64,000 nucleotides of DNA, from the NCBI GenBank assembly GCA_045646345.1, contig JAZRKN010000016.1, positions 1,693-65,692 on the forward strand. Reading direction: 5' to 3'. Made by a program: the position numbers and the translations under genes. The notes beneath the pieces were generated by a model. The model was not told the DNA's origin, did not search any database, and saw only the letters and a list, made by a program, of their open reading frames with translations. Origin of the DNA: Candidatus Scatovivens sp. GTDB lineage: Bacteria > Bacillota > Clostridia > TANB77 > CAG-508. Positions within the stretch are counted from its first letter, which is position 1; each line of letters begins with the position of its first letter. Positions 12,775 to 60,445 of the stretch are shown one piece after another.

Positions 12775-12906
12775 TAAATAGTTAACATAGTTATCAACAG
12801 TATGAGTCAAACTCGACTAACCTATAAGGTGCCCAGCCTTACACGAAAAACTATAATAATCTGGGAACGAAAGTATAGACTTCTATACCGTAGGGAAAGG
12901 AAAGAC

Positions 12907-13443
12907 ATGATTATTTTCATCACCAAGGTCCCTCAGGAATTCCGTGTTAACGAAACAATCAAATCATGCTTCACCGGCCGGTTCCTTCAGACCAAAATCC
13001 GTGACGAAGTAGTTTTGTCTCAGCCCGCACAATTGGGAAATGCATTTTATATCCAACCGCAAGGATTAGATAAAGTTCCCGTTGTCACCAGAGCTGAACT
13101 TCCTGCCAGCAGGGGCGCCAAAATAGCATGGGCTTTGTCTTTTATCGGTGACGATAAATGTATGACCACCGAAGCAAGTTTCTATGAAAACTATGACAAG
13201 CTGGTTAAGCAGGATATCATTACCAATATCGCTGCTTTCACCAAGTTTGGTCAGTACGCAATCGTCCTCGCAGACAAAACTATGTTCAATGTATCCCTTG
13301 GCAAAAACAAGATTAAGAAAAATAACCCTGTGCTTGCATGGATCTCTGATGACATCACTCTCGAGAGTTTACATGAACTTCTCGAAAGATATGAAAGTCG
13401 TAAGAAAATTCCCTGCAGCAAAGAATTTTTCTATCTCTTGTAA
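12907..13443 (+). CDS. hypothetical protein (178 aa) in a higher-GC cassette
   Basis: ORF 12802-13443; probable start MIIFITK at 12907 with RBS ggaaaggaaag. About 45% GC, distinct from flanks; own promoter and GC-rich terminator. Confidence 0.5.
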   Translation: MIIFITKVPQEFRVNETIKSCFTGRFLQTKIRDEVVLSQPAQLGNAFYIQPQGLDKVPVVTRAELPASRGAKIAWALSFIGDDKCMTTEASFYENYDKLVKQDIITNIAAFTKFGQYAIVLADKTMFNVSLGKNKIKKNNPVLAWISDDITLESLHELLERYESRKKIPCSKEFFYLL

Positions 13444-17358: not shown

Positions 17359-19101
17359 TTATTTTAAAACTTTTTTAATTTCTTCATGTCTTTTTATTTT
17401 CAATGTTGTTGTTTTAATTAATTCTTCTTCAGTAATAATTAATTCTTTAACATATTTATATTTTGGCATTGTCTTGTTCATATCTTTTATTTTTTCCCAT
17501 AATTTAGCTTTTATTTCTTCTTCAGATTCAGCACCATATTCTGATTTCATTATGTCTCTATCATAAACAACTTTAACACACATCTTTAAGTCATTTTCAT
17601 CACTTTCATCTGGTTTTCCGAAAACAAATGACTCTTTTACTCCAGGAATTTTGTTTATTAAAGATTCAGTTTCTTCTGGAAATACATTTTTTCCGTTTTT
17701 TAATACTATAACACTTTTCTTTCTTCCTGTTATAAATATAAATCCATCTTTATCTATGTAAGCTAAATCTCCTGTATGGAACCAACCATCTTTCATACAT
17801 TCATTTGTTGCTTCTTCATTTCCATAATAACCAAGCATTACAGTAGGTCCTTTTACAGCTAGTTCTCCTATTCCCATTTCATTTGGCTCAACAATTTTAG
17901 TTTGAATACTTGGGAAAGTTTTTCCTATAGAACCTAATCTATGATATGTTGGATTTTCGGCAGCAACAACTGGAGCTGTTTCTGATAATCCATATCCTTG
18001 GAATGTATCTACACCTAAATTTGTAAATCCTTTTTCTGTTTCAGGATCAAATGCTGCACCACCAGCAACCAAAATTCTTAATTTTCCACCAAAGTTTGCA
18101 TGAATATCTTTAAATAATTTTCTTCTAATATCTATTCCCATAAATCTTAAAAAGTTAGATACTTTTATAGCTAATTTAACTGTTTTTGTTTTTCCTTTTT
18201 TATCAATTCCTTGTAAAACTTTTTTGTACATATTTTCAAAAAGTACTGGAACTGCAATCATTACTGTTATTTCAAATTCTTTTAAATTTTCTGCGATATG
18301 TCTTATACCATCACAAAAAGCAATTGTTGCTCCAACACTCATTGCAAATAAGAAACCAACTGTACATTCGAAAACATGATGTAATGGTAAGAATGAAAGT
18401 AAAGTATCTCCTTTTCTAATATCAAACATTGCTGTTATATCATAAATATTTGTTGCTATATTTGTATGTGAAAGCATAACTGCTTTTGATTGAGAAGTTG
18501 TTCCAGATGTAAAAAGCATAACTGCCATTGCATCATTATCAATTTTAGCATCTAAAAATTCTCTATTACCATTTTTTAATAATTCTTTTCCATTTTTAAT
18601 TAATTCTTTTTGAGAATATATATCATCTGTTTTTTCTTCTAAATCCATTGAAATGTAATGTTTTATTTTTCCAACATTTTCTTTTCTAGCTCTTTCCATT
18701 ACTTCTGTATATTTTGAAGTATAGAATATAGCTTCAATTTCAGATCTTTCAATTAGACTTAAAAGTTCATTTTCTGTTAAAGCTTTATCTAATGGAACAA
18801 CAATACCAGTTCCACATGTTATTGATAAATAAGCTTCTTCCCATTCATATCTGTTTTCTCCAATAAGACCTATTCTTTTATCTTTTAATCCAATATCAAT
18901 TAAAGCAGTTCCTAAAGCTTCTACTTCTTCGATGTATTCTTTATATGACATTGTATACATTTCTTTTGTTTCAGGATTTTTAAATTTAAAAGCAGATTCA
19001 TTTTCAAATTCATTTTTTGTATTATTAATTATTTCTTTTAAATTGTTAAATTTTTTAACATTATAAACTCTTTCACAACCTCTATAGATTCTTTCTCCCA
19101 T
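17359..19101 (-). CDS. AMP-dependent acyl-CoA synthetase (long-chain fatty acid--CoA ligase, FadD-like)
   Basis: AMP-binding motif LFTSGTTSQSKAV and a GYGLSET-type motif; 580 aa. Confidence 0.85.
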   Translation of the reverse strand: MGERIYRGCERVYNVKKFNNLKEIINNTKNEFENESAFKFKNPETKEMYTMSYKEYIEEVEALGTALIDIGLKDKRIGLIGENRYEWEEAYLSITCGTGIVVPLDKALTENELLSLIERSEIEAIFYTSKYTEVMERARKENVGKIKHYISMDLEEKTDDIYSQKELIKNGKELLKNGNREFLDAKIDNDAMAVMLFTSGTTSQSKAVMLSHTNIATNIYDITAMFDIRKGDTLLSFLPLHHVFECTVGFLFAMSVGATIAFCDGIRHIAENLKEFEITVMIAVPVLFENMYKKVLQGIDKKGKTKTVKLAIKVSNFLRFMGIDIRRKLFKDIHANFGGKLRILVAGGAAFDPETEKGFTNLGVDTFQGYGLSETAPVVAAENPTYHRLGSIGKTFPSIQTKIVEPNEMGIGELAVKGPTVMLGYYGNEEATNECMKDGWFHTGDLAYIDKDGFIFITGRKKSVIVLKNGKNVFPEETESLINKIPGVKESFVFGKPDESDENDLKMCVKVVYDRDIMKSEYGAESEEEIKAKLWEKIKDMNKTMPKYKYVKELIITEEELIKTTTLKIKRHEEIKKVLK

Positions 19102-29075: not shown

Positions 29076-29840
29076 TTATTCTTCTTCGCTAGCAACTACT
29101 TCTTCCATATCTGTAGCTTCTTCAGCTTCTTCAACCATAGTTGTTACTTCAGCATCTTCACCTTGTCTACCTTCTATAACAGCGTTAGCCATAACATCAG
29201 CAATTAATTTAACTGCTCTTATAGCATCGTCGTTTCCTGGTATAGCAAAGTCAACGTCTTCTGGATTGCAGTTTGTATCTACTAATCCAACAACTGGAAT
29301 TCCTAATTTTTTAGCTTCTAATACAGCTATTCTTTCTTTTTTAGGATCAACTACGAACATAACTCCTGGCATTTCTTTCATATCTTTGATTCCGCCAAGA
29401 TTTTTTTCTAATTTTTCCATTTCATTTTTTAATCCGCTAACTTCTTTTTTTGGTAATACTTCGAATGTTCCATCAGCTTGCATAGCTTCTAAATCTCTTA
29501 ATCTTTGGATTCTTCCTTCGATTGTTTTGAAGTTTGTTAACATTCCTCCTAACCATCTTTGGTCAACATAGTACATGTTACATCTTTCTGCAGCTTCTTT
29601 AACACATTCTTGTGCTTGTTTTTTAGTTCCTACGAAAAGAACTGTTTTTCCTTCTTCTGCTTGTTCTTTAACGAATTTGTAAGCTTCGTCTAATTTTTTT
29701 GATGTTTTTTGTAAATCGATAATGTGAATACCATTTCTAGCTTGGAATATATATTCAGCCATTTTTGTATAGCATCTTCTTGTTTGATGTCCGAAATGAA
29801 CACCAGCTTCAAGTAATTGTTTCATTGCAACTACTGCCAT
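29076..29840 (-). CDS. rpsB: 30S ribosomal protein S2
   Basis: [15 protein letters not shown]-terminal signature and acidic C-tail. True start at 29840 (MAVVAMKQ) with RBS GGAGGA; the track's 5' extension is spurious. Confidence 0.95.
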
Positions 29841-30028
29841 TTTAATTTCCTCCTTAAATTTTGTTTTTTTCCTCCATAGATTTCCACATTTTAGACAACT
29901 ATTGTTAAAACAATAGCACAATCTAAAACTCAATCTATGTGTGTTATTATATAACTCTGACATTATACCAGCTTTTTTCCTTAATTGCAAGTGTTTTTTA
30001 GATTTATTTTACATATTTTATTGTTTTA

Positions 30029-30068
30029 TAAAAAAGAATGGGAGCTAGCGCAACTTACACTAGCTCCC
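30029..30068 (-). terminator. GC-rich intrinsic terminator downstream of paralog A
   Basis: stem gggagctag/ctagctccc followed on the minus strand by a U-run. Confidence 0.7.
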
Positions 30069-30080
30069 ACAATCCAAATA

Positions 30081-31193
30081 TCACCAAATTGTCGTTTCAA
30101 CAGCTCTTTCACTGTTTCTCACACCCCTTGCCAAAAGATCCCACAGATCAAATGCCAGCAAGGAAGTTCTGATGTTGGCCTTACCGTAGCGGTAGTCAAC
30201 AAAGATCAGACAATTTTTTTCCCAAATCTGGCGGTGATTATCAGGATTCACACGGTCTCTGCGATGTTCACCGATTTTGGTGTAGGTCATCATCTGGTTG
30301 GTAATAAAGTCGTGCTTATATACCACGTCGATGATACCTTCTTCCTGACACATAGCCTCGAAAACACCCTTTGCAAATGCGTGAATGTCTCGAGAACCAG
30401 CAGAAAGCGAACGAGTTCTTCCGTATCCCTTATCCAGGATACTTACTTGCTTGCTGTGCTTCAGCTTAGCAAAGTTAGGATAAGCCACCATTGCATTCTT
30501 ATAGATTTTTCTCAACAGCACGGCTTCAGAGCCGCTGATGTGAGCATAACCATGAACATGCAGGGTGTCGAAGAAGTACTTCAGAAAACGATTCAGATTG
30601 TCGAAACACTCCATATCGTCGCGAGCCATCTTCAGTTCTTTCTCCAGTTCTTTGCTGCAGCGAGATTCAGTAGCCGGATCCTTTGCAGTCACTTCCAGCA
30701 CTTTCACTTCGAGCACATTCTTTTCAGGATTGAAGTAGAACAGCACTTTAGCCTTAGCCTTAGGCTTTTTTACCTCAACTTCCTTAGGTTCTCTGCTAGG
30801 AACCATGGTAGTTTTTCCGTCGTTCACAACAACCTTGTTCACAACGACGTATTCGGTCTTAACTTCCTTCACTTTTGCTTTGGTTGCCAGGTATACAACA
30901 TTGCCCAACACCTCGTTGTCCATGTTGACACCATCATTGGTCGTGATTTTCTTACCGGAAGCCTTCTTCGAGGATTTTTCCTCATTCTTCTGGTATTTCA
31001 TTCTCTCCCAGCTGCATCCGGTTCCCAAAAAACCACTCAGAAAACTCCGCTGATGAGCTTCGGTCATGATCGCATTTCGTTCTTCGGAGGACAAACCTCT
31101 AAATTTACGCAGCTCCTGACCATTGCCATCAAGAACCTTTCCCAAAAACTCGGGACTGACTGTTACCTTAATATCATTCTTCTTAATATCCAT
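30081..31193 (-). CDS. hypothetical protein, paralog A of a tandem pair (370 aa)
   Basis: About 45-48% GC. C-terminal roughly 170 aa is homologous to the downstream neighbour. Shared motifs: EAV, YPxFAKL, KGxxRxR, FAxxxFExM, VYKxD, IRTSxxxFDLW. Own promoter and terminator. Confidence 0.5.
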   Translation of the reverse strand: MDIKKNDIKVTVSPEFLGKVLDGNGQELRKFRGLSSEERNAIMTEAHQRSFLSGFLGTGCSWERMKYQKNEEKSSKKASGKKITTNDGVNMDNEVLGNVVYLATKAKVKEVKTEYVVVNKVVVNDGKTTMVPSREPKEVEVKKPKAKAKVLFYFNPEKNVLEVKVLEVTAKDPATESRCSKELEKELKMARDDMECFDNLNRFLKYFFDTLHVHGYAHISGSEAVLLRKIYKNAMVAYPNFAKLKHSKQVSILDKGYGRTRSLSAGSRDIHAFAKGVFEAMCQEEGIIDVVYKHDFITNQMMTYTKIGEHRRDRVNPDNHRQIWEKNCLIFVDYRYGKANIRTSLLAFDLWDLLARGVRNSERAVETTIW

Positions 31194-31266
31194 GTTGCAT
31201 TTCTCCTCCTGTATATGTAGAATTTAAGGTTTACAAGTTTCAATTAAAGCACAATGCTTCAATTAT

Positions 31267-31295
31267 ATTATAACACAAAGTCATATTTTCGTCAA
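31267..31295 (-). promoter_or_regulatory. near-consensus sigma-A promoter (TTGACG-17-TATAAT) for paralog A
   Basis: minus-strand reading ttgacgaaaatatgactttgtgttataat. Confidence 0.6.
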
Positions 31296-31352
31296 ACAAA
31301 TCTTGTATAAAAAATTACCACTAGTATAACCTGAGTTTTACTCTAAAATTAA

Positions 31353-31388
31353 GAAAAACGGAGACATACTCATGTCTCCGTTTTTTAA
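31353..31388. terminator. bidirectional intrinsic terminator after paralog B
   Basis: stem aacggagacat/atgtctccgtt with A/T runs on both sides. Confidence 0.75.
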
Positions 31389-31398
31389 TCCATTTCAG

Positions 31399-32292
31399 TT
31401 AAGCTCGAACATTAGAGAGGTCAGATTTTATCAACATCTCCCACAAATCAAAAGGCATGAAAGATGTTCTAATTTCAACACCACTTGCTGTTCCAAACTT
31501 ATACATAATGAATCTAGGACAAATACTGTGCGGAATTCTGTGCGGACTTGCTCCACAGCGTTCATAAGTTTTGTACTTATTGAGGTTAGGATCGTATTTG
31601 TATACAAATCTTGTCAGACCCAACTTTTCCATCACTTCGAACGTTGCTCTTGCAAAGGTATACATGTCACGCTCTCTTGCGTTTATGATTCTACCTCTGG
31701 CAAACCCTTTTCTTAAGACTTCATACTGATCATCTTTATCAAGCTTTGCAAATTCCGGATAGTGCTTGATAGCTCTCATCATAATCTTATACATTGTGAC
31801 AGCTTCATCGCCTCTTACACTGCAAAGCTTTTCACCATACAAAGTCTCAAAACAGTACTTTATTGCCAACTCCTCCGTCAAGTTTCTAGCTAAGAACTTC
31901 TCTACTAAGATAAGTTGTTGGCTAACCTTATCTAAAAGTCGTTCTTTAGTACTTTCATCTTTGGCAATGACGTATGGCACTATTTCTGCCACAGAAAGAT
32001 CTTGATTGTACGAAACATTCAAGATAAGATATGCCTCATCTGCTTGTTTCTTTCCTTTCAAAATGATCGCTTCCTGCATTGAAGAGAAGAATTCTTTTTC
32101 TTTAGCATCAGCCTCTCTCCAATAAGTGTTTTCAAACTTATTTAAAAGAACAAACTTTACCAAATTTGCCCAAAACTTCGAAATCACTTCGATTCTTTTC
32201 TCTTTAGAAAGTTCGTGATATTTCGAAAGCTCCTCTCCTCCAATTCGCATAATAGTGTCAAACCATACCATACCGAAGTTGCATTTAATCAT
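31399..32292 (-). CDS. hypothetical protein, paralog B of the tandem pair (297 aa)
   Basis: About 40% GC. Probable start MIKCNFGMVWF at 32292 with RBS aaggggg. Upstream promoter TTGAAT-17-TATAAT at 32360-32388. C-terminal domain homologous to paralog A. Confidence 0.5.
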   Translation of the reverse strand: MIKCNFGMVWFDTIMRIGGEELSKYHELSKEKRIEVISKFWANLVKFVLLNKFENTYWREADAKEKEFFSSMQEAIILKGKKQADEAYLILNVSYNQDLSVAEIVPYVIAKDESTKERLLDKVSQQLILVEKFLARNLTEELAIKYCFETLYGEKLCSVRGDEAVTMYKIMMRAIKHYPEFAKLDKDDQYEVLRKGFARGRIINARERDMYTFARATFEVMEKLGLTRFVYKYDPNLNKYKTYERCGASPHRIPHSICPRFIMYKFGTASGVEIRTSFMPFDLWEMLIKSDLSNVRA

Positions 32293-32359
32293 AAAAAACC
32301 CCCTTTTTCGGCAACTAGACTCTTGTCTTTCCTCCAAATAGCATATAAGCTACCTTATT

Positions 32360-32388
32360 ATTATACCATAAGGTTACATAATATTCAA
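32360..32388 (-). promoter_or_regulatory. near-consensus sigma-A promoter (TTGAAT-17-TATAAT) for paralog B
   Basis: minus-strand reading ttgaatattatgtaaccttatggtataat. Confidence 0.6.
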
Positions 32389-32425
32389 TAGTGTTAACGA
32401 TTTTTTATTCTTATCTTAGTTATTA

Positions 32426-33313
32426 TTAATTATAAACTTCTATTCTTTGTTTAAACATTGTTCCATCTTTAGTTGTAAACAATTCTAATTTGTTATCTTT
32501 TCTTAAAATATCTTGTATTTTCCAAAGTCCTAGTCCAGAATTTCCTTTTTCTTTTTTAGTAGTATAGTTCTTTTCAAATATTCTGCATGTATCTACATCT
32601 TTATTAGCATATGTATTTTCTACTACTATATCAATTTTGTTTCTACTCATATCTTTCAAAAATTGAATATTAACAACCTTTTCTTCGCAATCATTTGTAG
32701 CTTCAATAGCATTATCAACTAATATACCAAGCATTCTTGATAATACATAAGCTTTTTCTTTCAATTCTTTTAAACTTGCCATAATTTCAATATTCATTTT
32801 TATACCTTTTTCTTCAGCAACTTTAAATTTATTTTGCAATATTCCATATATTGCTGGATTTTCTAATCCTTGACAATTTAGAAAATCAATAACATTCGCA
32901 TGATTGCATTCTTTCATTAATGATTTAAAATATTTTCTTAATGAATTCATATCTTCTAAATAGATATAAGCATCCATAGCTTGAATAATATTATTAAAGT
33001 CATGTTTAAAACATCTAACAGTATCAGTAACTTCTAATAAATTCTTATTTTCTTCTGTTAACTGTTCTATATCTTTTTTCATCTTTTGAATATCTCTTTT
33101 GCTTAAAAATCCATATATATTTATACATACAATTCCTATGCAAATGATTAAATTTCCTAAAATTATTTTAGGATCCATTGTTTTGGTTGCTTGTATTATT
33201 GTTTTAGCTTGGATATTAGAAACAATAACTGCAATAATAGATATTATAAAATTAATAATATCCATTAAATTAATTTGTTTTTTGATTGAATCAAATTTTA
33301 TTTGTACACTCAT
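32426..33313 (-). CDS. sensor histidine kinase, AgrC/ComD-type GHKL (HATPase_c_5) family, apparently orphan
   Basis: 2 N-terminal TM helices, H-box FKHDFNNII and a C-terminal GHKL domain (ENTYANKDVD...GNSGLGLWKIQDIL). No adjacent LytTR regulator, agrB or agrD. Confidence 0.7.
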   Translation of the reverse strand: MSVQIKFDSIKKQINLMDIINFIISIIAVIVSNIQAKTIIQATKTMDPKIILGNLIICIGIVCINIYGFLSKRDIQKMKKDIEQLTEENKNLLEVTDTVRCFKHDFNNIIQAMDAYIYLEDMNSLRKYFKSLMKECNHANVIDFLNCQGLENPAIYGILQNKFKVAEEKGIKMNIEIMASLKELKEKAYVLSRMLGILVDNAIEATNDCEEKVVNIQFLKDMSRNKIDIVVENTYANKDVDTCRIFEKNYTTKKEKGNSGLGLWKIQDILRKDNKLELFTTKDGTMFKQRIEVYN

Positions 33314-33852: not shown

Positions 33853-34335
33853 ATGTACAAACTCAAGAAAATCTTTGCCATGGTATTGGCACTCGCACTT
33901 GCTTTCAGTTTCTCAACTGTAGCATTTGCAGCAGAGGAATCTGGTATTCCTGAAAACGCAACTCGTCACACAATCGAAGTAACAGTTGAACCTGGTGAAA
34001 ATGACATTGCACCTTATATCTGGGGGCAAGGAACCTACAATCCTCCCGTTAACGGTGCAACTTATACTGCATCTTTCACAACCCCTCACAGATACATGGC
34101 TTATGAAATCCGCGGTATCAAAAGCGATGGTTCTACTACAGGATTAACTTATCAAGTATCTTTGCTTTATTCATTAACCATGTCTTCAGTTTCTTCAATT
34201 ACACGAGCTGTTGATGGTAACACCTATAAAATGGATTGGGTAGATGTAGAAGCTAACGATAACTATTTATTTAAAATCCAAAATTATACTGGAACCCCCA
34301 TAAACGTTACAATTACTTATTACACTTGGGCATAA
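33853..34335 (+). CDS. small secreted protein (signal peptide, 160 aa), unknown function
   Basis: N-terminal signal peptide ending AFA-AEE. About 40% GC. RBS aatggaggt. Confidence 0.5.
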   Translation: MYKLKKIFAMVLALALAFSFSTVAFAAEESGIPENATRHTIEVTVEPGENDIAPYIWGQGTYNPPVNGATYTASFTTPHRYMAYEIRGIKSDGSTTGLTYQVSLLYSLTMSSVSSITRAVDGNTYKMDWVDVEANDNYLFKIQNYTGTPINVTITYYTWA

Positions 34336-34346
34336 CTTTTCTGATA

Positions 34347-34378
34347 AAAGAGGCTAGATCACTCTAGCCTCTTTTTAT
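34347..34378. terminator. bidirectional intrinsic terminator
   Basis: stem agaggctaga/tctagcctct followed by T-run. Confidence 0.75.
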
Positions 34379-35043
34379 AGATATATTTCTATATTTCCAC
34401 ATTTTTTTATTACTTCTTTATTCGATATAATATTCAAATAATCAATTTTTACTTTTATATTATCTTGACTATAAAAACTATTAAATTCTAAAACATAAAT
34501 ATACGTTTTTTTATCAATTCGTTTTCCATATTTCGAAATTTCATTAATTTTTAAATCTATATTTTCTTCAAAAATAACATTTCCATTTATCTTATCTACT
34601 AATTTTATATTATCAAAATAAACTTTATCAAATTCCTCTTCACATCTAACATTAAATGCAATGCAAAGTTTGTCTTCTTCTTGAATAATATAATCTACTT
34701 TGATTCCAACACCATCATGTTCAACATATTCCATGTCTATTTCTTTGTAATTACCGTTTGCAATAGCCTCTTCTATTTGTTTATCTGTATTTGAGAAAAT
34801 ATTAGTTACTAAACTTTCTATTTCATCAGCAAATACTCCTAAACTTGAAATTAAAAAGATAACACAAGCAAATGTTGCAATAAGCTTTTTGGAAAAAAGA
34901 ACAGTTCTTGTTTTTTCTTTAATGTCTGGTTTGTTTAATTCTTCTTTCATTTTTATCTTTAAATTTTGTTTAAATTCATCTCTTAATTTTACTTCATTAA
35001 GTTCATTTTTTATTTCTTCTAATTCTTTATTAAATTCTTCCAT
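34375..35043 (-). CDS. putative anti-sigma factor (single-pass membrane protein)
   Basis: 222 aa; N-terminal cytoplasmic coiled region, one TM (LIATFACVIFLISSLGVFA), extracytoplasmic C-domain. Overlaps the sigma gene by 14 nt. Confidence 0.5.
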   Translation of the reverse strand: MEEFNKELEEIKNELNEVKLRDEFKQNLKIKMKEELNKPDIKEKTRTVLFSKKLIATFACVIFLISSLGVFADEIESLVTNIFSNTDKQIEEAIANGNYKEIDMEYVEHDGVGIKVDYIIQEEDKLCIAFNVRCEEEFDKVYFDNIKLVDKINGNVIFEENIDLKINEISKYGKRIDKKTYIYVLEFNSFYSQDNIKVKIDYLNIISNKEVIKKCGNIEIYL

Positions 35044-35530
35044 TTGCTCTTTCTCCTTTCAGAATAATTTCTTTTACTTTATCTCTGGCTCGCTTTAGTC
35101 TGGTCTTAGCATTCGATTCGCTTATTTTTAGAATCTTACTTATCTCAGAAATTTTGAGTTCATGTATATAAAATAATTCAAAAATTTCTCTATATTTCTT
35201 TTCTAGTTTATTTATTGCAACCTTTAATCTATTATCACAAGTCACTTCAGAATTATAACCAAGATTACCTGTTAATGGCTCTGTTTTTCTAATTTTATTA
35301 TATTTTAATTTATTTGAAACTAGATTTAATGCAATTCTTATCAACCAACATTTCTCATGTTCTTCTGTATTAAATCTTTTGCCTTTCTTTATATATTTTA
35401 CATATTCCATAAATATTTCTTGTACAATATCTTCACAATCTTCTATATTTTCTAACTTATTATACAAGATAGTATTTATCATATCAGCATATTTATCTAT
35501 TATTTTATCTACGTCTATTTCCTTTTTCAT
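35030..35530 (-). CDS. RNA polymerase sigma-70 family ECF-type sigma factor
   Basis: region 2 (CWLIRIALNLVSNKL) and region 4 HTH (ISEISKILKISESNAKTRLKRARDKV). Likely start at 35530 (MKKEIDVD). Confidence 0.75.
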   Translation of the reverse strand: MKKEIDVDKIIDKYADMINTILYNKLENIEDCEDIVQEIFMEYVKYIKKGKRFNTEEHEKCWLIRIALNLVSNKLKYNKIRKTEPLTGNLGYNSEVTCDNRLKVAINKLEKKYREIFELFYIHELKISEISKILKISESNAKTRLKRARDKVKEIILKGERANGRI

Positions 35531-35653
35531 TTTCACTTTCCTGCTTCTTTTTTTGGCATTTTTTATATTTTTTTTAATTTTTTTAACTTTTTTAAAAATT
35601 TTTGTCACCTTTTGACCTCCTCAGTTGATTTATTATATAGGAGGTATTTTTTT

Positions 35654-36328
35654 ATGTACAACTTAGTATTATTTGTAAGTGATTTAAGTTTAATCAAAAA
35701 AATGGGTAATATAGTTTTTAACAATTTTAAATCTATGAATTTAATTGGTATAGTTTCAACACACAAAGAATTAGAATCACTTTGCAAAAAACATAAAGTA
35801 AATTTAATTATTTTGTCTGAAACCAAATACAATTCAAAACCAATTAACTGCATTTTACCCAAAATTGATTCTGTAATTGTTCTTTGCGAATCTGACACAT
35901 CTAATTACACAAAAGATTCTAATACACTATTCTTATCAATCAATAAAAGTACTACTTATATGATAAATGAACTTAGTAAATTTAATAATTTTATTTATAA
36001 TCAATTTATAAAAAACAAATTAATTTATATTCTTGAAAACTTAAAATTTGATTTTAAATTTTCTGGAACTACATACTTTTTAGATGCCGTTATTATTTCA
36101 TATTTAACCATGGAAAATTATGAATTTGAAAATCTAAAAAAATATATTTATCCTTTAGTATCTCAAAAACATAATACAGATTTATCTATAGTAAAATCTT
36201 CCATTTTTCGTGCAATTCAATCTGCTAAAAAGCATTTAAAACCTGAAGATTTCCAAAAACTTAATATGAATTATCCAGAAAAAATAACCACAAAACATTT
36301 AATTACTGAAATTATTAATCATTTATAA
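35654..36328 (+). CDS. Spo0A C-terminal-domain-like regulator with a degenerate receiver-like N-domain
   Basis: C-terminal region GTTYFLDAVIISYL...LKKYIYPLVSQKHNTDLSIVKSSIFRAIQSA matches the Spo0A_C pattern (YL..AI....K.iYp.va.k..T..s.VE.aIR.AI). RBS aggagg. Confidence 0.45.
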   Translation: MYNLVLFVSDLSLIKKMGNIVFNNFKSMNLIGIVSTHKELESLCKKHKVNLIILSETKYNSKPINCILPKIDSVIVLCESDTSNYTKDSNTLFLSINKSTTYMINELSKFNNFIYNQFIKNKLIYILENLKFDFKFSGTTYFLDAVIISYLTMENYEFENLKKYIYPLVSQKHNTDLSIVKSSIFRAIQSAKKHLKPEDFQKLNMNYPEKITTKHLITEIINHL

Positions 36329-41209: not shown

Positions 41210-42004
41210 TTAAATTTTTTCGTATTCAACAATTTTCAGCCCTTGCTTTAAAGAACTAGCGTGTGAACAAAACAATCCAATTTCTTTACATTCATTACTA
41301 TAAACTTGAGAAGCTAGTGGAACAACTCCATCCCCTTTCAAATTCATTATTTTGTTTGCCATATACAATACTAAATCAGTTAAATTCTTGCAATCAAATA
41401 TTACTCTAAAACACGAAATTATATTAAGATGTTTTACACAAACCGGTTTGGTTAAATTCTCGATAAATTCCGAGTTAGTCGCGATATCTCTATCGACCTT
41501 ATGATCGCTAAATATCATATTATAAATTGCAATATAAAACTTGTTTTTTAATCTTGCTTCTACCATTTTCTTTTCTGCAATAACGGTACCATAAAAAGGT
41601 GTCGATATCGTCACAAGATATATTGGTTGTAAGCAAAAATAACTAGCATTTGTCAAACAAACTCCACATTTTGAATGTCCAACTAAAATGAGTTTTTCAT
41701 ACACCTCATATTGTTCATTTACAAACTCTGAAATTTCATAGCTCGATATTTCGAGCCCATCACATTCGAATGTGAAATAAAAAGCATATACAGTATGTTC
41801 CTTACTTATCTCAGGTTTAAACTCTTTCATAAGCGGATCATGCTTGATTACTCTATTTTCATCATCCAAACTCAGAGAATGTCCATTTCCAATTATATAG
41901 CACCTTTCATTTTTGGTGCCTTTTTGAATCTGTTGGACTATTATATTGTCTGTTTTATACACAACTCCAGCCAAATGCTGATTTTTTAAAATATACCGTT
42001 TCAT
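41210..42004 (-). CDS. alpha/beta-hydrolase, lipase/esterase-like (GHSxG)
   Basis: nucleophile elbow LVGHSKCGV; about 264 aa. Confidence 0.55.
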   Translation of the reverse strand: MKRYILKNQHLAGVVYKTDNIIVQQIQKGTKNERCYIIGNGHSLSLDDENRVIKHDPLMKEFKPEISKEHTVYAFYFTFECDGLEISSYEISEFVNEQYEVYEKLILVGHSKCGVCLTNASYFCLQPIYLVTISTPFYGTVIAEKKMVEARLKNKFYIAIYNMIFSDHKVDRDIATNSEFIENLTKPVCVKHLNIISCFRVIFDCKNLTDLVLYMANKIMNLKGDGVVPLASQVYSNECKEIGLFCSHASSLKQGLKIVEYEKI

Positions 42005-42052
42005 AAAAAGTCTCCTTAACATTTGACTACGGTTGTTTACGAGTTACCAGTT

Positions 42053-42078
42053 TTAGGAGGACTGAAAATCAGTCCTCC
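42053..42078. other. GC-rich hairpin aggaggactg-aaaa-cagtcctcc at a cassette boundary
   Basis: perfect 10-bp stem. T-run only on the plus side although both flanking genes are on the minus strand. Confidence 0.5.
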
Positions 42079-42113
42079 CTTTTCATACTAATATTCAGTT
42101 GTTTTTTTCCTTT

Positions 42114-43097
42114 TTACAGGCATTGTTCAAAAGAGAGATCGTCACAAAGTGCTTCTGCCAAATACATACAAGTATCAGACACTTCATCCAGAACATCTTT
42201 CGGAATTTCAGCATCCTCTCTGGCATTTTCAGCATGCTTAATGTACTCGATTACAGGAGCTTCCAGCATATCTACCATGCTTCTGTCTTTTTCGTACAGC
42301 ATCTTTGAAACGAGCAGGGATTCATCAGGAGTACCAACTTCACCATAAAGAACAGTCTGATCATCTTCATCCATTCCGAACAGGAATCTGGTTTTTACCA
42401 GTAAAACTCCAGCTTCTTCATATTTCTTTGCCAACTCAGTATAAATAAACTCACAAAGCATTCTGAGATGCTCAATGTAATGAGTAGCACTATTATGAAG
42501 TGATGCCCTTTCCAGCAGTTCGATTTCTTCTTCAGTGTCAAAATCTTCTGCATACTGTATATCTGCAAGAGAAATATCTACTAATTCGAATGCCTCATCC
42601 ACGGTTTCACACTCTATCATAGCTTCATAATTTTCGCTACAATAGTCGTTTTCGTAAAACCACTCTACCAAGAGTCTAATAGCTTCCTTTTTGCAAATTT
42701 CTTTGCCTTCTTCAGAATAGAAAATAACTTCAGGTACACAAAGCTTGTCTTTCTTTCCGGTCTCTTCGTAACCATTTACGATAAAATCCACAGGAAAAAC
42801 AGACAGAGGCTTAAGCAACATTACTGTTCCTCTCTTCTCTTCAGAGATACCATACTTCTTCCACAGTTCTGGAGTACTGACGATATGGTCTGTCAGTAAC
42901 TCAAACTCAGTCTCCAAAAACCTCTTATTACTCTCGGAAAGAGCAACCGTAAGGTTCGGCTTCATCAGGATTCCATCAACTACCGGTCTATCGGCAATCG
43001 ACAAAATACTGCTTGCCTCGTAGATGATGAGTTCAGGATTTTCCTCTTCAGAAATAACAACCTGATCATCAAAAGGGATCGTTGCATTCTCGCTCAT
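42114..43097 (-). CDS. hypothetical highly acidic cytoplasmic protein (about 327 aa) in a higher-GC cassette
   Basis: About 42% GC. Start MSENATIPF with RBS aaaggtgg. Upstream promoter TTGCAA-17-TATACT. Confidence 0.45.
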   Translation of the reverse strand: MSENATIPFDDQVVISEEENPELIIYEASSILSIADRPVVDGILMKPNLTVALSESNKRFLETEFELLTDHIVSTPELWKKYGISEEKRGTVMLLKPLSVFPVDFIVNGYEETGKKDKLCVPEVIFYSEEGKEICKKEAIRLLVEWFYENDYCSENYEAMIECETVDEAFELVDISLADIQYAEDFDTEEEIELLERASLHNSATHYIEHLRMLCEFIYTELAKKYEEAGVLLVKTRFLFGMDEDDQTVLYGEVGTPDESLLVSKMLYEKDRSMVDMLEAPVIEYIKHAENAREDAEIPKDVLDEVSDTCMYLAEALCDDLSFEQCL

Positions 43098-43221
43098 TGT
43101 GTTCTTACCACCTTTCAATTTTCTTAGTATTACTTTATTTCCACATTTAATTAGTCAATTTTTTGCAGGAAATAAGTGAATACAGGCTATAGTATACTAC
43201 ATTTCAAGCATAATTGCAACA

Positions 43222-43260
43222 CAAAAGAGCCGCACCACACTTGGTGCGACTCTTTTGCTT
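43222..43260. terminator. GC-rich intrinsic terminator
   Basis: stem gagccgcacc/ggtgcgactc followed by T-run. Confidence 0.7.
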
Positions 43261-43266
43261 GAAAAA

Positions 43267-43860
43267 TCACGAATTGTCGTACGCCTTGTCACTATAGTAC
43301 GAACAGAAAAGCATCAGTACAGTCGTATGATCGAGAGGACAATCTTCGCTAATTCTCACATCAAAATCCTTAAACAGCACAAACGAATTGTATTCTGCAA
43401 TAAGATTGTTTTCTGTATCAACTAGTTTTCCAGAAGTGTCAAAATAATTGAAGCTTGCCATGCCAATCTTTTGTCCAGCACCATCATAAATGTCATAAGT
43501 GTTGCCAAACAAATCAAATTTGCCTACCATTTCAGCCGTTACTACTCCATTTACAATAATTGCATGAGAGTCCTGAGAAATAAAATGGTAATCATCGCCC
43601 GCATACGCTTTCTTGTTACCTTCAAGGTCTTTCATTGTAAGCGGATCTTCTACAACCCTAAAAATGTTTCCGCTAACTTTGCAGATGTCTTCTCCTCCCG
43701 TGCTGATTTCGATATCAGTAGAAAGCCGAAAGTTCTTAACATCACAGTCATACTTGGTATGAGGACCGATTTTGGATCCAGAAAAAACAGTTCCCAAAAT
43801 CACGATTGCCACAAGAAAAATTATGAGTGCTTTTACTTTTGTCCGAGTAACATTTTTCAT
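43267..43860 (-). CDS. hypothetical membrane-anchored protein (197 aa), beta-rich extracytoplasmic domain
   Basis: N-terminal TM (ALIIFLVAIVILGTVF); about 45% GC. Confidence 0.45.
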   Translation of the reverse strand: MKNVTRTKVKALIIFLVAIVILGTVFSGSKIGPHTKYDCDVKNFRLSTDIEISTGGEDICKVSGNIFRVVEDPLTMKDLEGNKKAYAGDDYHFISQDSHAIIVNGVVTAEMVGKFDLFGNTYDIYDGAGQKIGMASFNYFDTSGKLVDTENNLIAEYNSFVLFKDFDVRISEDCPLDHTTVLMLFCSYYSDKAYDNS

Positions 43861-46616: not shown

Positions 46617-47246
46617 ATGAACATACGGCTTTTAGACAGTATCCCACTGATTTCAAACAAGACAAAAATCAAAATTAGCATTTCACTTCTTATCTTCGCA
46701 TTTTTCGTTTGCATTTTTCGTTCTGGCAGCATTGATAGTAAGATTTGTCTCGTCGCCATGTTTTTTTCAAGCCTAGGTGATATCGCACTTAACTGTAAAC
46801 CAATCGAAAAACGTTCTCATACCCTTTTATATATTGGGGCGTTTTTCTTCATGATAGCACATCTCATTTACGCATCTGCATATTATTTACTTATCCAAGG
46901 AGCATCTCTTTCTTTTGCAAATCCTGGTATGTATATAGCAATGAGTATTATGATTTTGATTTTTATAGTTTCTGTAATCAGTATTCGTAAAGGAAAAAAA
47001 TCAATGAAACTTTCTATGATTTTTGTCTTTATGATGTATATGATAATGATTTCTATAAATTTTATAACTATCTATTCTTACAGTTGGAATTTTAAAGCAA
47101 TCTCATTTATAGGCGCAACTTCATTCTTGATTTCAGATTATATCATTGGAATTGAAACTGTCTTCAAGATTAAAAGTAACTTGTTAAGAAAACTGGTTTG
47201 GATTTTTTATCCTATTGGGCAAATTCTAATAATCTTTTGTCGATAA
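46617..47246 (+). CDS. YhhN-family (lysoplasmalogenase-like) membrane protein
   Basis: multi-TM; FFSSLGDIAL motif characteristic of YhhN. Confidence 0.6.
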   Translation: MNIRLLDSIPLISNKTKIKISISLLIFAFFVCIFRSGSIDSKICLVAMFFSSLGDIALNCKPIEKRSHTLLYIGAFFFMIAHLIYASAYYLLIQGASLSFANPGMYIAMSIMILIFIVSVISIRKGKKSMKLSMIFVFMMYMIMISINFITIYSYSWNFKAISFIGATSFLISDYIIGIETVFKIKSNLLRKLVWIFYPIGQILIIFCR

Positions 47247-51014: not shown

Positions 51015-51400
51015 AATAAAACCCTCCACTAAATTTATTTTTAAATATCTGTTAATGATTAGTGGAATTTTATGTTTGTAAAACAAAAAATTCGTGAATG
51101 ACTACTTACATAGAACATTCACGAACACAATAATTTACATATCAAAATAAAGATATATTAAATATATCATTCGATTCTAGATAGCGCTCCACATAAGTGA
51201 CAGTTCGTTACATATTTTGCAACGTCCCAGCAATATTTATTTAGACGATAAATATAACTTCGGCAACATTTCCTTTCAAGCAAATATAGGAGTCTATTCC
51301 ACTTAATTTACTTTACTCTTAAACATCGCGACCTCTACCAATAGTCATTGGGGTTACCAATAACAGATTATTTAATTGTTTTTAAGTTTAGCATAGATTT
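51015..51400 (-). ncRNA. candidate structured cis-regulatory leader (riboswitch or attenuator) of the amino-acid ABC operon
   Basis: Roughly 330-nt 5' UTR, noticeably GC-enriched for this genome. Promoter TTGACA-17-TAAACT near 51380-51410. Terminates in a hairpin ttcgtgaatg-N15-cattcacgaa (51091-51125) followed by a U-run just before the RBS. Confidence 0.45.
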
Positions 51401-51512: not shown

Positions 51513-52274
51513 TTGGAGAATGCGAAAATGTCATTATTAGGAATCGTTCGGGATCAACATCTATTACTGCTCTTTGCAGTACAATTTGTAACCTCATTTT
51601 GCTTTATCTACTATGGGAAAAATAAACTCAGCTTTATTTCAGAAATCTTACTAATAATAAGCTGTGTTTTATACCATAAAACACCATTTAACTTGGACAT
51701 ACTACATTGCTATATTGCTGAATATATTTTACTGAAACTTTCTCTTGTTTTGATTGTATATATCGCAAAACGCTTTGCTTTTTTCATTTTGGTAGTAATA
51801 ACCCATAAAGAAAAATACAAAAAAGCGTATAAATTTCTTGTAAAAAAGAAACGTTTTTTGCGATTCCAATCACGCATATGGAATAAAGTAAAATACGGCA
51901 TTAGAATCAAAAAGGGTATTCCATCGATGGTAAACAAAAGAAATGCTCAGCACGGAATTTCTTTTGATAGTGATGGTTTCCCAAAGTTCAAAGTCATCAC
52001 TGAGGTTTACATAGATTCGTGTTATTGGAAAAAAAGCCGAGATGTACATTTTTATCAAGCAAATCGGCAATTATATACTCGAATCAAAAAATACTCTAAA
52101 CTTTCCAAAAAATTTACCAAAAACGAAATCAAAGAATTCAAGCAAGGAAATACTCCTAAAAAATATACTTGGCATCATCACCAAGATAAAGGATTGTTAC
52201 AGCTTGTCGATTCTGAAATTCATGCAAAAGTTCGTCATAATGGTGGATTTTCGATTTGGGGCCCAAGAGAATAA
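51513..52274 (+). CDS. ORF ending in a WHH-type HNH/EndoVII nuclease toxin domain; N-terminal part probably degenerate (orphan toxin module)
   Basis: C-terminus KKYTWHHHQDKGLLQLVDSEIHAKVRHNGGFSIWG matches the WHH nuclease signature (W-HH ... H ... H-GG). N-terminal 130 aa is low-complexity hydrophobic and may not be translated. Alternative start MVNKRNAQHG at 51927. Confidence 0.55.
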   Translation: MENAKMSLLGIVRDQHLLLLFAVQFVTSFCFIYYGKNKLSFISEILLIISCVLYHKTPFNLDILHCYIAEYILLKLSLVLIVYIAKRFAFFILVVITHKEKYKKAYKFLVKKKRFLRFQSRIWNKVKYGIRIKKGIPSMVNKRNAQHGISFDSDGFPKFKVITEVYIDSCYWKKSRDVHFYQANRQLYTRIKKYSKLSKKFTKNEIKEFKQGNTPKKYTWHHHQDKGLLQLVDSEIHAKVRHNGGFSIWGPRE

Positions 52275-52358: not shown

Positions 52359-53333
52359 TTATCTCTTAATCATTATTCCGCTTCCACTTGATTTAATAGT
52401 AGTCTCATCAAAATCTTCAATCAACCACATCGCTTTGCTAATTTCAATCTGCTCTTCATTAAGATTGAAACTTCTGCAATATGCCGTTGCGATTTCCTGA
52501 ATCAAGAAATGAAAAACTTCAGGCGCCTGCATATACAGTTCATTGCTTTGAATCATGCAAATTAGATATGCGTTAAGCTGATATGCAATACTGGTTTCAG
52601 CAGGAACTTTTGCCTTAGGATAGATTGCATCTTTCAGTACTTCATTGATATGATCTTCCAGAAGGAAATCTTCATCCATAATGCTTCTGGTCACCAGTTC
52701 AGGGTTTGCAAAAATCATCTGCTGACCAATCATCGCAGCATAGAGATATGCACTATTATTACAAGGATATCCCATCCAGCTTACCAATCTCAGATTTACA
52801 GCTTCTGTAATGGTTTCATAAAGTCCCCAATACATATCAGTATCGTATTCAATACCAAGCATATGAACTACTTCATGACACCAAGTAAAAGGAAAATATT
52901 CAGGCAGATTTTCATAGAGATTTTTGTTTACATAGACAACATTACTTCCAGGCTTATGATAGCCCATCAGCACATTGTCAGAAACACCAATGAGTTTCGT
53001 CTCTACAGAATTGATTTTTTCGGTAACATCAATTCCATATTCGATCTGGAAATATTCAATTACCTTTTCCTTTAATCCTCTAATGTACTCTTTATCAGGA
53101 TTGCAGATTTCGACATTAGACGAATCGATCAAAGAATTAATGTACTCTTTTTCATCCCAAATCATATTTTCTTCAGGAATATCTACAGAGTCACTCTCTT
53201 CCATAAAGAAGAATTCTGCCAGTGTAATTTCCTTATTGGTAGGATCATAGAGATTATCCCTTTTTACTCCACATCCCACCAAAGTGGTCATGAGCATAAC
53301 TACAACCAAAATCATAGCAAAAATTTTTTTCAT
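52359..53333 (-). CDS. lipoprotein with HExxH zinc-metallopeptidase motif
   Basis: lipobox LVGCG; HEVVHMLG; about 40% GC. Confidence 0.55.
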   Translation of the reverse strand: MKKIFAMILVVVMLMTTLVGCGVKRDNLYDPTNKEITLAEFFFMEESDSVDIPEENMIWDEKEYINSLIDSSNVEICNPDKEYIRGLKEKVIEYFQIEYGIDVTEKINSVETKLIGVSDNVLMGYHKPGSNVVYVNKNLYENLPEYFPFTWCHEVVHMLGIEYDTDMYWGLYETITEAVNLRLVSWMGYPCNNSAYLYAAMIGQQMIFANPELVTRSIMDEDFLLEDHINEVLKDAIYPKAKVPAETSIAYQLNAYLICMIQSNELYMQAPEVFHFLIQEIATAYCRSFNLNEEQIEISKAMWLIEDFDETTIKSSGSGIMIKR

Positions 53334-56128: not shown

Positions 56129-56180
56129 AGAAATGCAGTTTATATATTTTTTGCATCAAAGCCAATTGGGAGGTGTTAAT

Positions 56181-56786
56181 ATGGCATACAACAGTCTTGA
56201 TTTACGAAAAAAACTGTCTATTGAGGAGTACTATCGGTTCTCTCAACGGTTAGCATATGAATATGCTACCACTTCAGCATCAACTGCTGTTACCGCGCTT
56301 ACTGAAAAATATGATGTTACAAAAAGCGCATTTTACACATTGCTGGAATTTGCTATAACTCATCATTTGGTTTCTGATAAAGTTGTCCAATCGATTCGAG
56401 AAAAGCTTGTTTCCAATCTTGCAGCTCATGGTTGCAAAGGTTACAAAAGCAATGTGAAATACAATCAGTTAACAGCAAAAAGAGACAATTTTTCCGCATT
56501 CCAAAAAAAGGATATTGAGTATATTGCAAAATATTACGCTATGCATCCTGAGGAATCCAAGCAGGAAGTCACAGCTCGTTTTCATTTCTATAGTCCCAAA
56601 GTATTGAATCGACTTTTGAAACGGGCTTGTATGGAATTAATCATCACAGACAAAATTTTCAATATGCTTCGTCAAAGAGCAATCGATAATGCAGTAGATC
56701 TTGATTACACAATCAATTTCTTTTGCGAGCTTGCTCGTTATCGCGACAAAGCAAAACAAATCAAGAAAAGCCAATCTGCATTCTAA
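56181..56786 (+). CDS. hypothetical protein (201 aa) in a higher-GC cassette
   Basis: start MAYNSLDLRKK with RBS gggaggtg; about 40% GC; followed by a bidirectional terminator at 56805-56845. Confidence 0.5.
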   Translation: MAYNSLDLRKKLSIEEYYRFSQRLAYEYATTSASTAVTALTEKYDVTKSAFYTLLEFAITHHLVSDKVVQSIREKLVSNLAAHGCKGYKSNVKYNQLTAKRDNFSAFQKKDIEYIAKYYAMHPEESKQEVTARFHFYSPKVLNRLLKRACMELIITDKIFNMLRQRAIDNAVDLDYTINFFCELARYRDKAKQIKKSQSAF

Positions 56787-60356: not shown

Positions 60357-60445
60357 GCAGATGTGGCGGAACTGGCAGACGCACAGGACTTAAAATCCTG
60401 CGGGACCTAAATCCCGTGCCGGTTCGATTCCGGCCATCTGCACCA
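60357..60445 (+). tRNA. tRNA-Leu (anticodon UAA) with encoded CCA
   Basis: acceptor stem gcagatg/catctgc, anticodon loop cTTAAaa, long variable arm, T-arm ccggTTCGATTccgg, terminal ACCA. Confidence 0.9.

Follow-up and report, generated by a model that had tools for sequence, protein, structure and literature searches.

The genes analysed here, called A and B, are an adjacent pair in a 64,000 nucleotide stretch of DNA (the window) on contig JAZRKN010000016.1 of Candidatus Scatovivens sp., an uncultured, very AT-rich gut Clostridium (window GC 27.6%). Both lie on the minus strand, between rpsB and a gene for a histidine kinase. Gene A (30081-31193) encodes a 370 residue α/β protein of undescribed family with an isoelectric point (pI) of 9.3, a GC content of 0.44 and a G+C content at third codon positions (GC3) of 0.50. 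Gene B (31399-32292) encodes a 297 residue paralogue (pI 8.9, GC and GC3 both 0.37) that lacks an A segment of about 70 residues. The two open reading frames (ORFs) and the C-terminal domain they share had been recognised in a preliminary description of the sequence, and both observations hold: BLASTP aligns A and B with 35% identity across 216 residues (E=2e-30), with an additional weak match at the N-terminus, and every motif block named there (EAV..YKI, YPxFAKL, KGxxRxR, D..FA...FE.M, VYKxD and IRTSxxxFDLW) was found. The N-terminal halves, by contrast, had been called unrelated, and this is contradicted by a family alignment of 21 sequences (A, B and 19 database relatives), in which the first ~55 residues of A and B align, W62 is invariant and L28 and L34 are nearly so. 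A and B are thus full-length paralogues, differing mainly by the extra segment in A, which is β-structured and rich in lysine and valine. The start of B is placed at the ATG at 32292 in preference to the TTG at 32337, as all B orthologues begin MIKCN, MVNCN or MIYCK. Judged by eye, neither protein has a signal peptide or a membrane segment.

A and B are real genes under purifying selection, yet they evolve fast. The ratio of non-synonymous to synonymous substitution (dN/dS) is 0.10-0.29 across orthologue pairs of A and B and 0.12-0.29 for A, and A orthologues share from 30 to 96% identity. NG86 estimates of dS are unreliable at such extreme composition, and conclusions about turnover given below rest on direct third-position comparisons. 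The AlphaFold2 model of full-length A has a mean local confidence score (pLDDT) of 79.8 and a global one (pTM) of 0.76, and that of the C-terminal domain a pLDDT of 82.9. It is barely credible that the GC-rich segment acts as a structured RNA, or through a 411 residue antisense ORF (29985-31220, plus strand), instead of through the A and B proteins. A codon-aligned, stop-free antisense frame does span the whole of A in the window and in three of the orthologues from other lineages (L003, L085 and L096), but stops interrupt it in the L001 and L086 orthologues, and an open antisense frame is the automatic result of an A gene without TTA, CTA and TCA codons; we rejected it as a gene on both counts. 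The sense frames, with their dN/dS of 0.1-0.3 and a confidently modelled fold, also argue against this alternative, and Rfam has no match inside either gene.

Each gene is equipped with its own expression signals, as the preliminary description had it. The promoter of A (31267-31295, minus) consists of TTGACG, a 17 nucleotide spacer and TG-TATAAT, with 11 of 12 consensus positions and an extended -10 element. It is followed by a 5' leader (31194-31266, minus) with a conserved ATAATTGAAGC motif and the Shine-Dalgarno sequence AGGAGGAG, and the gene ends in an intrinsic terminator (30038-30070, minus) formed by a 15-pair stem and a T-run. The B promoter (32360-32388, minus) has TTGAAT, a 17 nucleotide spacer (ATTATGTAACC) and again TG-TATAAT, and its intrinsic terminator (31354-31385, minus) a perfect 14 bp stem and a T-run; five terminator-like sites were observed in the region against 1.6 expected. 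Across five lineages both promoters, the B terminator and the A leader motif are conserved. In the alignment of the A promoters the -35 TTGAC, the TG and the TATAAT are all invariant, and the B-terminator stem-loop is present in all five lineages, near-identical in sequence in four. This conservation shows two transcription units, A and B each predicted to be read from its own near-consensus sigma-A promoter and to end at its own terminator. A short 5' hairpin (AAGCA-TTG-TGCTT) is possible in the A leader, with just 3-5 bp in the orthologues. The 17 nucleotide spacer of the B promoter is nearly invariant even across lineages whose protein has diverged to ~30% identity, which hints at a putative regulator site overlapping the promoter.

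Within the limits of the searches possible, A and B appear to belong to a rare, undescribed family of very AT-rich uncultured Clostridia. No Pfam, NCBIfam, PHROG or PADLOC model matches A, B and 73 relatives consistently. PADLOC-DB 2.0 has no match to A or B, and among 75 relatives gives three unrelated single-member matches at E>0.001; a Pfam Hormone_recep match (17.5 bits against a cut-off of 23.5, over 28 residues) was dismissed as noise. A profile search of PDB sequences returned noise only (FAP119 at E=0.52, YhaM at E=0.055), and Foldseek found nothing in the PDB at E<=0.001 with the A model. The preliminary description's failure to place the shared domain in any known family is therefore borne out by hidden Markov model libraries and by sequence and structure searches of the PDB alike. 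Among 5.8 billion proteins, clusters at 90% identity numbered 14 and 6, and 1.84 billion representatives contained 91 clusters at 50% identity that a profile search picked up. A further homologue search with the large alignment, capped in its number of candidates, brought up almost exclusively members already known. A scan of metagenome contigs gave two loci; scans of viral contigs, tblastn against phages and plasmids, and a scan of GTDB representative genomes with the family motifs gave no relative. In the literature we found no description of the family, nor of the codon phenomenon reported below in these organisms.

The structural matches of A are weak and partial, and among them is a KA1-like resemblance in a region of sheet plus helix. 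The nearest fold candidates are the KA1 and helix-grip (SRPBCC) two-layer α+β domains, among them those of TUT1, Kcc4, the AMPK-α C-terminal domain, MARK and the METTL16 VCR. To sigma-70 region 2-like or cyclin-like helical bundles there is no significant structural or sequence similarity. The β region of A carries a net charge of +6, and the basic pI of the two proteins is shared by the family (median 8.9). Conservation of D, R and K residues had led to the guess of a nucleic-acid enzyme. R268, D269, E279, S344 and D349 are indeed invariant within the A/B subfamily, as a nuclease, transferase or similar activity could require. Across 75 diverse members, however, just L211, P239, F241 and W351 are conserved at 90% or above, none of them polar or catalytic. 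With no polar residue conserved family-wide an enzymatic role for A and B is unlikely, and a nucleic-acid enzyme using the conserved D, R and K residues very unlikely indeed.

The kinase beside the pair (32426-33313, minus) is of the AgrC/HPK10 type, 295 residues long, with two transmembrane helices predicted by eye. It scores 99.8 bits against the NCBIfam AgrC model (cut-off 500), with the cytoplasmic half alone matched, and its orthologues carry Pfam SPOB_a and HATPase_c_5. A scan of the 37 nucleotides between its stop codon and the B promoter downstream found no terminator-like site. Divergent from the kinase is a gene for a 160 residue secreted protein with a signal peptide (33853-34335, plus; GC3 0.29). 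The order secreted protein, kinase, B, A occurs in the window and in four further lineages (L001, L003, L085/L096 and L101/L102), the secreted protein being seen upstream wherever the contig reaches that far. In the window the gene order as a whole is Spo0A_C-like regulator, extracytoplasmic function (ECF) sigma factor, anti-sigma factor, small secreted protein, AgrC-type kinase, B, A, rpsB and tsf. L001 has this full order (A 58%, B 53% and kinase 73% identical to the window), as does L101/L102, where A is 30%, B 28.5% and the kinase 61% identical while tsf is still 94% identical. L003 has it from the Spo0A_C-like gene, where its contig begins (64%, 58% and 78%). L085 retains secreted protein, kinase, B and A (38%, 32% and 60% for A, B and kinase), and the L096 contig starts inside the kinase (70% over its last 100 residues) and continues with B (31%) and A (38%). 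In pairwise comparison the identities drop in step between the near lineages (L003/L001) and the far ones (L085/L102), for the kinase from 0.78/0.74 to about 0.6, for A from 0.66/0.59 to 0.40/0.30 and for B from 0.59/0.54 to 0.32/0.285, and the secreted protein, with orthologues in L001, L003, L085 and L102 (GC3 0.17-0.37), co-diverges with the module. This shared order and parallel divergence show A and B as the downstream half of a secreted protein/kinase/B/A module that has, by comparison of these contigs, evidently been inherited in place.

The composition of A and B is opposite to that of their host. Whereas the window as a whole has a GC of 0.276, values of 0.42-0.45 are reached over A. 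Neighbouring genes have a GC3 of 0.09-0.18 (rpsB 0.18, tsf 0.12); A has 0.50 and B 0.37. The spacers around both genes are host-like at 27-29% GC, so the excess is confined to the coding sequences. The contrast of 40-48% with about 27% GC first drawn for the segment as a whole therefore stands for A, and fails for B (37%) and for the spacers. The same property is seen in the other lineages: GC3 of A is 0.44 in L001, 0.48 in L003, 0.58 in L085, 0.52 in L086, 0.49 in L096 and 0.26 in L102, and that of B 0.37, 0.34, 0.48, 0.49, 0.42 and 0.36, respectively. The kinase has 0.11-0.14 wherever it is complete in other lineages, and other backbone genes 0.07-0.17. At fourfold sites G+C is 45% in A as against 0% in tsf, 5% in carB and 2% in the kinase.

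In terms of codons, gene A of the window contains no TTA, ATA, CTA, TCA or CCA. TTA, which makes up 69-85% of host leucine codons, is absent in four of five A orthologues; none of the five contains ATA, CTA or CCA, and there is a single TCA among them. Used instead are CTG, AAG, CAG, ACC, ATC and TAC. As rpsB and tsf together have 100% AAA and 100% CAA, this is not the host's translationally preferred set. The codon adaptation index (CAI) calculated against rpsB and tsf is 0.20 for A and 0.30 for B, the lowest of the genes compared, against 0.54-0.72 for housekeeping backbone genes.

This composition does not look like that of DNA drifting towards its host. Comparison of the third-base GC/AT state at codons for identical amino acids gives a weak correlation within the genus (phi 0.2-0.38) and almost none for A against L085 (phi -0.10 to 0.12), and changes on terminal branches of the three closest lineages run 41:33 (GC-to-AT to AT-to-GC) in A and 21:32 in B. 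Balanced change, together with turnover of third bases at retained GC3, indicates an equilibrium property and not a residue of transfer. These third-position comparisons show a GC-rich codon usage that is maintained rather than left over from recent acquisition. The force behind it may be selection, either on codon choice or on mRNA stability, or else GC-biased gene conversion at a locus prone to recombination; repeated replacement from an unseen pool is a further candidate. A general GC-to-AT mutation bias in bacteria, countered by selection or by biased gene conversion, is established (Hildebrand et al. 2010, PMC2936529). An effect of the present magnitude, limited to single genes, is unusual.

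Taken together, these data leave little room for the preliminary interpretation, in which a high-GC island was recently acquired, came to lie between rpsB and the kinase and displaced the kinase's partners; we now consider this highly improbable. GC and codon usage of A and B are atypical, as it requires, and in the nearest GTDB representatives (metagenome-assembled genomes from rabbit, Hadza people and chicken, with tsf 72-79% identical) A, B and the kinase were not found near rpsB. But at least four further lineages have the arrangement, even where A identity has fallen to 30-38%, the composition is at equilibrium and not decaying, the spacers are host-like, and the kinase is without a partner in every lineage. 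A repeat search found short, chance-level flanking direct repeats only, no integrase or transposase is present among the ORFs between 26 and 36.5 kb, and no tRNA target lies near A and B, the sole tRNA gene of the window being 28 kb away. Nor is there an empty site in the relatives with this arrangement: A and B occupy the same site in L001, L003 and L101/L102, and the order kinase-B-A is found in L085/L096 too. With genomes further away there is no shared synteny upstream of rpsB, which leaves no clean empty site to be defined. The preliminary description would have been refuted by related genomes with the same genes at this locus and a host-like composition; the genes are there, but their composition remains unlike the host's. 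A and B resemble genomic islands in atypical composition and codons, in having their own promoters and in having no assigned function. They differ in their stable position, in the lack of mobility genes and flanking repeats, and in showing equilibrium in place of amelioration.

A different origin for foreign-looking genes would be that A and B are conflict or defence genes (anti-phage, toxin-related or immunity-like) at a variable hot spot, whose alleles are swapped in from a GC-richer accessory pool. We rate this as rather unlikely, though it would explain both the hypervariability and the composition. It would fit the strong divergence of positional orthologues beside a nearly unchanged tsf, as in L102, the rarity and patchiness of the family, and the scatter of other GC3-rich accessory ORFs in the window, which include a Colicin-DNase/WHH toxin. 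Some relatives also keep suggestive company: the L086 pair lies in a four-gene GC-rich block beside a KAP NTPase matching PDC-S20, a member in L105/L106 lies beside a PemK-domain protein in a four-gene insert between uvrB and uvrA, and a member in L092 comes after a 1146 residue ResIII helicase. Such neighbours occur in 3 of about 9 contexts, too small a sample to show a recurrent place in defence islands. However, no PADLOC or PHROG model matches any of the 75 members, searches of phage, plasmid and viral contigs gave no relative, and a GC-rich donor pool did not come to light, all contexts found being in AT-rich hosts. Moreover, the divergence of A and B broadly follows that of the adjacent kinase, as vertical descent predicts, and with dN/dS at 0.1-0.3 positive selection is not indicated.

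If the codon usage is kept by selection, another setting for it would be abundance. A and B could be abundant, housekeeping-like and lineage-specific structural, nucleoid-associated or RNA-binding proteins, their place next to the kinase being historical and their codons the outcome of mRNA-level selection for stability or output. Conservation of the consensus extended -10 promoters, of strong terminators and Shine-Dalgarno sequences and of a possible 5' hairpin is as expected in this case, as is the basic pI; the KA1-like region has among its structural neighbours the TUT1 and METTL16 KA1 domains, solved with U6 small nuclear RNA, and the pair occurs without the kinase in L086. The codons themselves speak against it, as the lowest CAI values together with a choice of AAG, CAG and CTG opposite to that of ribosomal genes argue against classical selection for high expression. 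Abundant core proteins, likewise, do not usually evolve this fast, and the nearest sampled genomes lack the pair. We regard this explanation as unlikely.

The reading that we prefer, with low confidence, is that A and B are a basic, cytoplasmic, non-enzymatic binding or adaptor pair, acting with or downstream of the kinase, with a codon usage kept by selection. As old paralogues they would bind nucleic acid or anionic membrane, a role proposed because of their basic charge and the weak KA1-like resemblance. The two would probably work as a pair, with or downstream of the AgrC-type kinase, and would stand in for its missing response regulator. Their atypical codons would be held by selection on translation or on mRNA, for example through dependence on a rare tRNA or through greater mRNA stability. 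That the AgrC-like kinase is without partner genes, an early observation, holds throughout: no response regulator is found beside it in the window or in any lineage carrying it.

As in agr loci, an AgrC/HPK10-type membrane kinase adjoins a gene for a secreted product, and as in agr with its hypervariable specificity groups the block diverges much faster than the flanking housekeeping genes. But there is no AgrB, no gene for a short AgrD-like peptide and no AgrA/LytTR regulator here, the kinase appears to have two transmembrane helices as opposed to six or seven, with a score far below the AgrC model's cut-off, and A and B have no counterpart in agr. Like an AgrA/LytTR response regulator, A and B are encoded beside the kinase (in the window and four lineages, with L086-L088 as the exception).

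Several observations weigh against the proposed pair of kinase-associated adaptors. Conserved adjacency is the sole link between A, B and the kinase, and each of the two genes has its own promoter. In Pfam, NCBIfam and the structure search A and B, unlike AgrA, show no receiver domain with a phospho-acceptor aspartate and no LytTR or other recognisable DNA-binding output domain. In L086-L088 the B-A pair, with A 50% identical, is found elsewhere in the genome and without the kinase, and distant single-copy members of the family have unrelated neighbours (the ResIII helicase, the uvrB/uvrA insert, cell-wall genes). Finally, selection on codons is inferred solely by excluding decay, and the pattern would look no different under biased gene conversion, or if the genes were replaced time and again from an unsampled pool.

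The three regulatory genes beyond the secreted protein (34375-36328) are kept beside the kinase module in L001 and L101/L102, and in L003 up to the contig limit. They encode a DUF4179-like anti-sigma factor (34375-35043, minus), an ECF sigma factor (35030-35530/35608, minus) and a divergent 224 residue protein with a Spo0A_C-like C-terminal domain (35654-36328, plus; 24.2 bits against a cut-off of 25), in which no receiver domain is recognisable. On the other side of the pair, the end of the A terminator lies about 50 nucleotides upstream of a promoter-like site (29990-29962), and between that site and the rpsB start at 29840 is a sub-threshold Rfam match to t44 RNA (29865-29961, minus; 29.2 bits against a gathering score of 44, E=0.0026). 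We take t44 to be the rpsB leader, and the position fits an S2 autoregulatory leader.

Further ORFs with a GC3 of 0.26-0.45, where the genome has ~0.1, are present in the window at 12802-13443 (plus), 41210-43860 (minus), 46617-47246 (plus), 52359-53333 (minus) and 56133-56786 (plus). Most are without a Pfam match; the ORFs include a YhhN protein and a divergent SAICAR_synt-like one (42114-43097). This suggests that A and B, rather than being unique, stand at the far end of a whole class of GC-rich accessory genes. The ORF at 51528-52274 (plus, GC3 0.28) encodes 248 residues with a Colicin-DNase/WHH nuclease C-terminus (E=3e-28) and an N-terminal half that is hydrophobic by eye, giving it the look of a polymorphic toxin; the next ORF, on the opposite strand, encodes a 324 residue lipoprotein-like product. 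A lysine riboswitch (51174-51345, minus; 107 bits) lies upstream of three same-strand ORFs, and the sole tRNA gene of the window is a tRNA-Leu(UAA) (60357-60445, plus). In L086 (2725-6541) the B-A pair is followed by two GC3-rich ORFans of 248 and 259 residues (GC3 0.38 and 0.49) and then by AT-rich host genes, including the KAP-family NTPase, which matches the PADLOC candidate PDC-S20 with E=1.6e-44. Alignment of the family with hhalign to GC-rich neighbours (L086:2728-3471 and window 56133-56783) showed them to be unrelated. L001 (13107-13576) is without the DUF2207 gene that separates tsf and carA in the window, L003 and L102, and has an extra 127 residue ORFan after carB (17957-18340, minus; GC3 0.34), indicating that small GC-rich single-gene insertions vary between close relatives.

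A and B thus represent a family, confined to poorly known, very AT-rich gut Clostridia, for which there is no relative in sequence and none that convinces among solved structures. They hold a synonymous-site GC of 35-58% for long enough to randomise the sites, while mutation pressure pushes their neighbours to ~10%, and the cause, be it translation, mRNA stability or biased gene conversion, bears on how codon usage is kept up against strong mutation bias. Rare-codon control of Streptomyces developmental genes through TTA and the bldA tRNA, and the codon-biased translation of stress regulons, are comparable in that few genes keep host-rare codons. By this analogy A and B would be a mirror image, with GC-ending codons in a 27% GC genome, and in whole genes rather than single codons. 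A stronger form of the proposal, in which they are a new-fold output of an AgrC-type kinase without a response regulator and their anti-host codon usage is adaptive, seems to us doubtful, and decidedly improbable as a whole. If true, it would make the pair a whole-gene mirror image of bldA/TTA control, and the translation of A and B would be either dependent on rare tRNAs or insulated from starvation or from tRNA- or mRNA-targeting stress that halts the AT-codon proteome. The repeated coupling of A and B to a quorum-sensing-type kinase with no adjacent response regulator is a testable lead to what may be a non-canonical signalling output.

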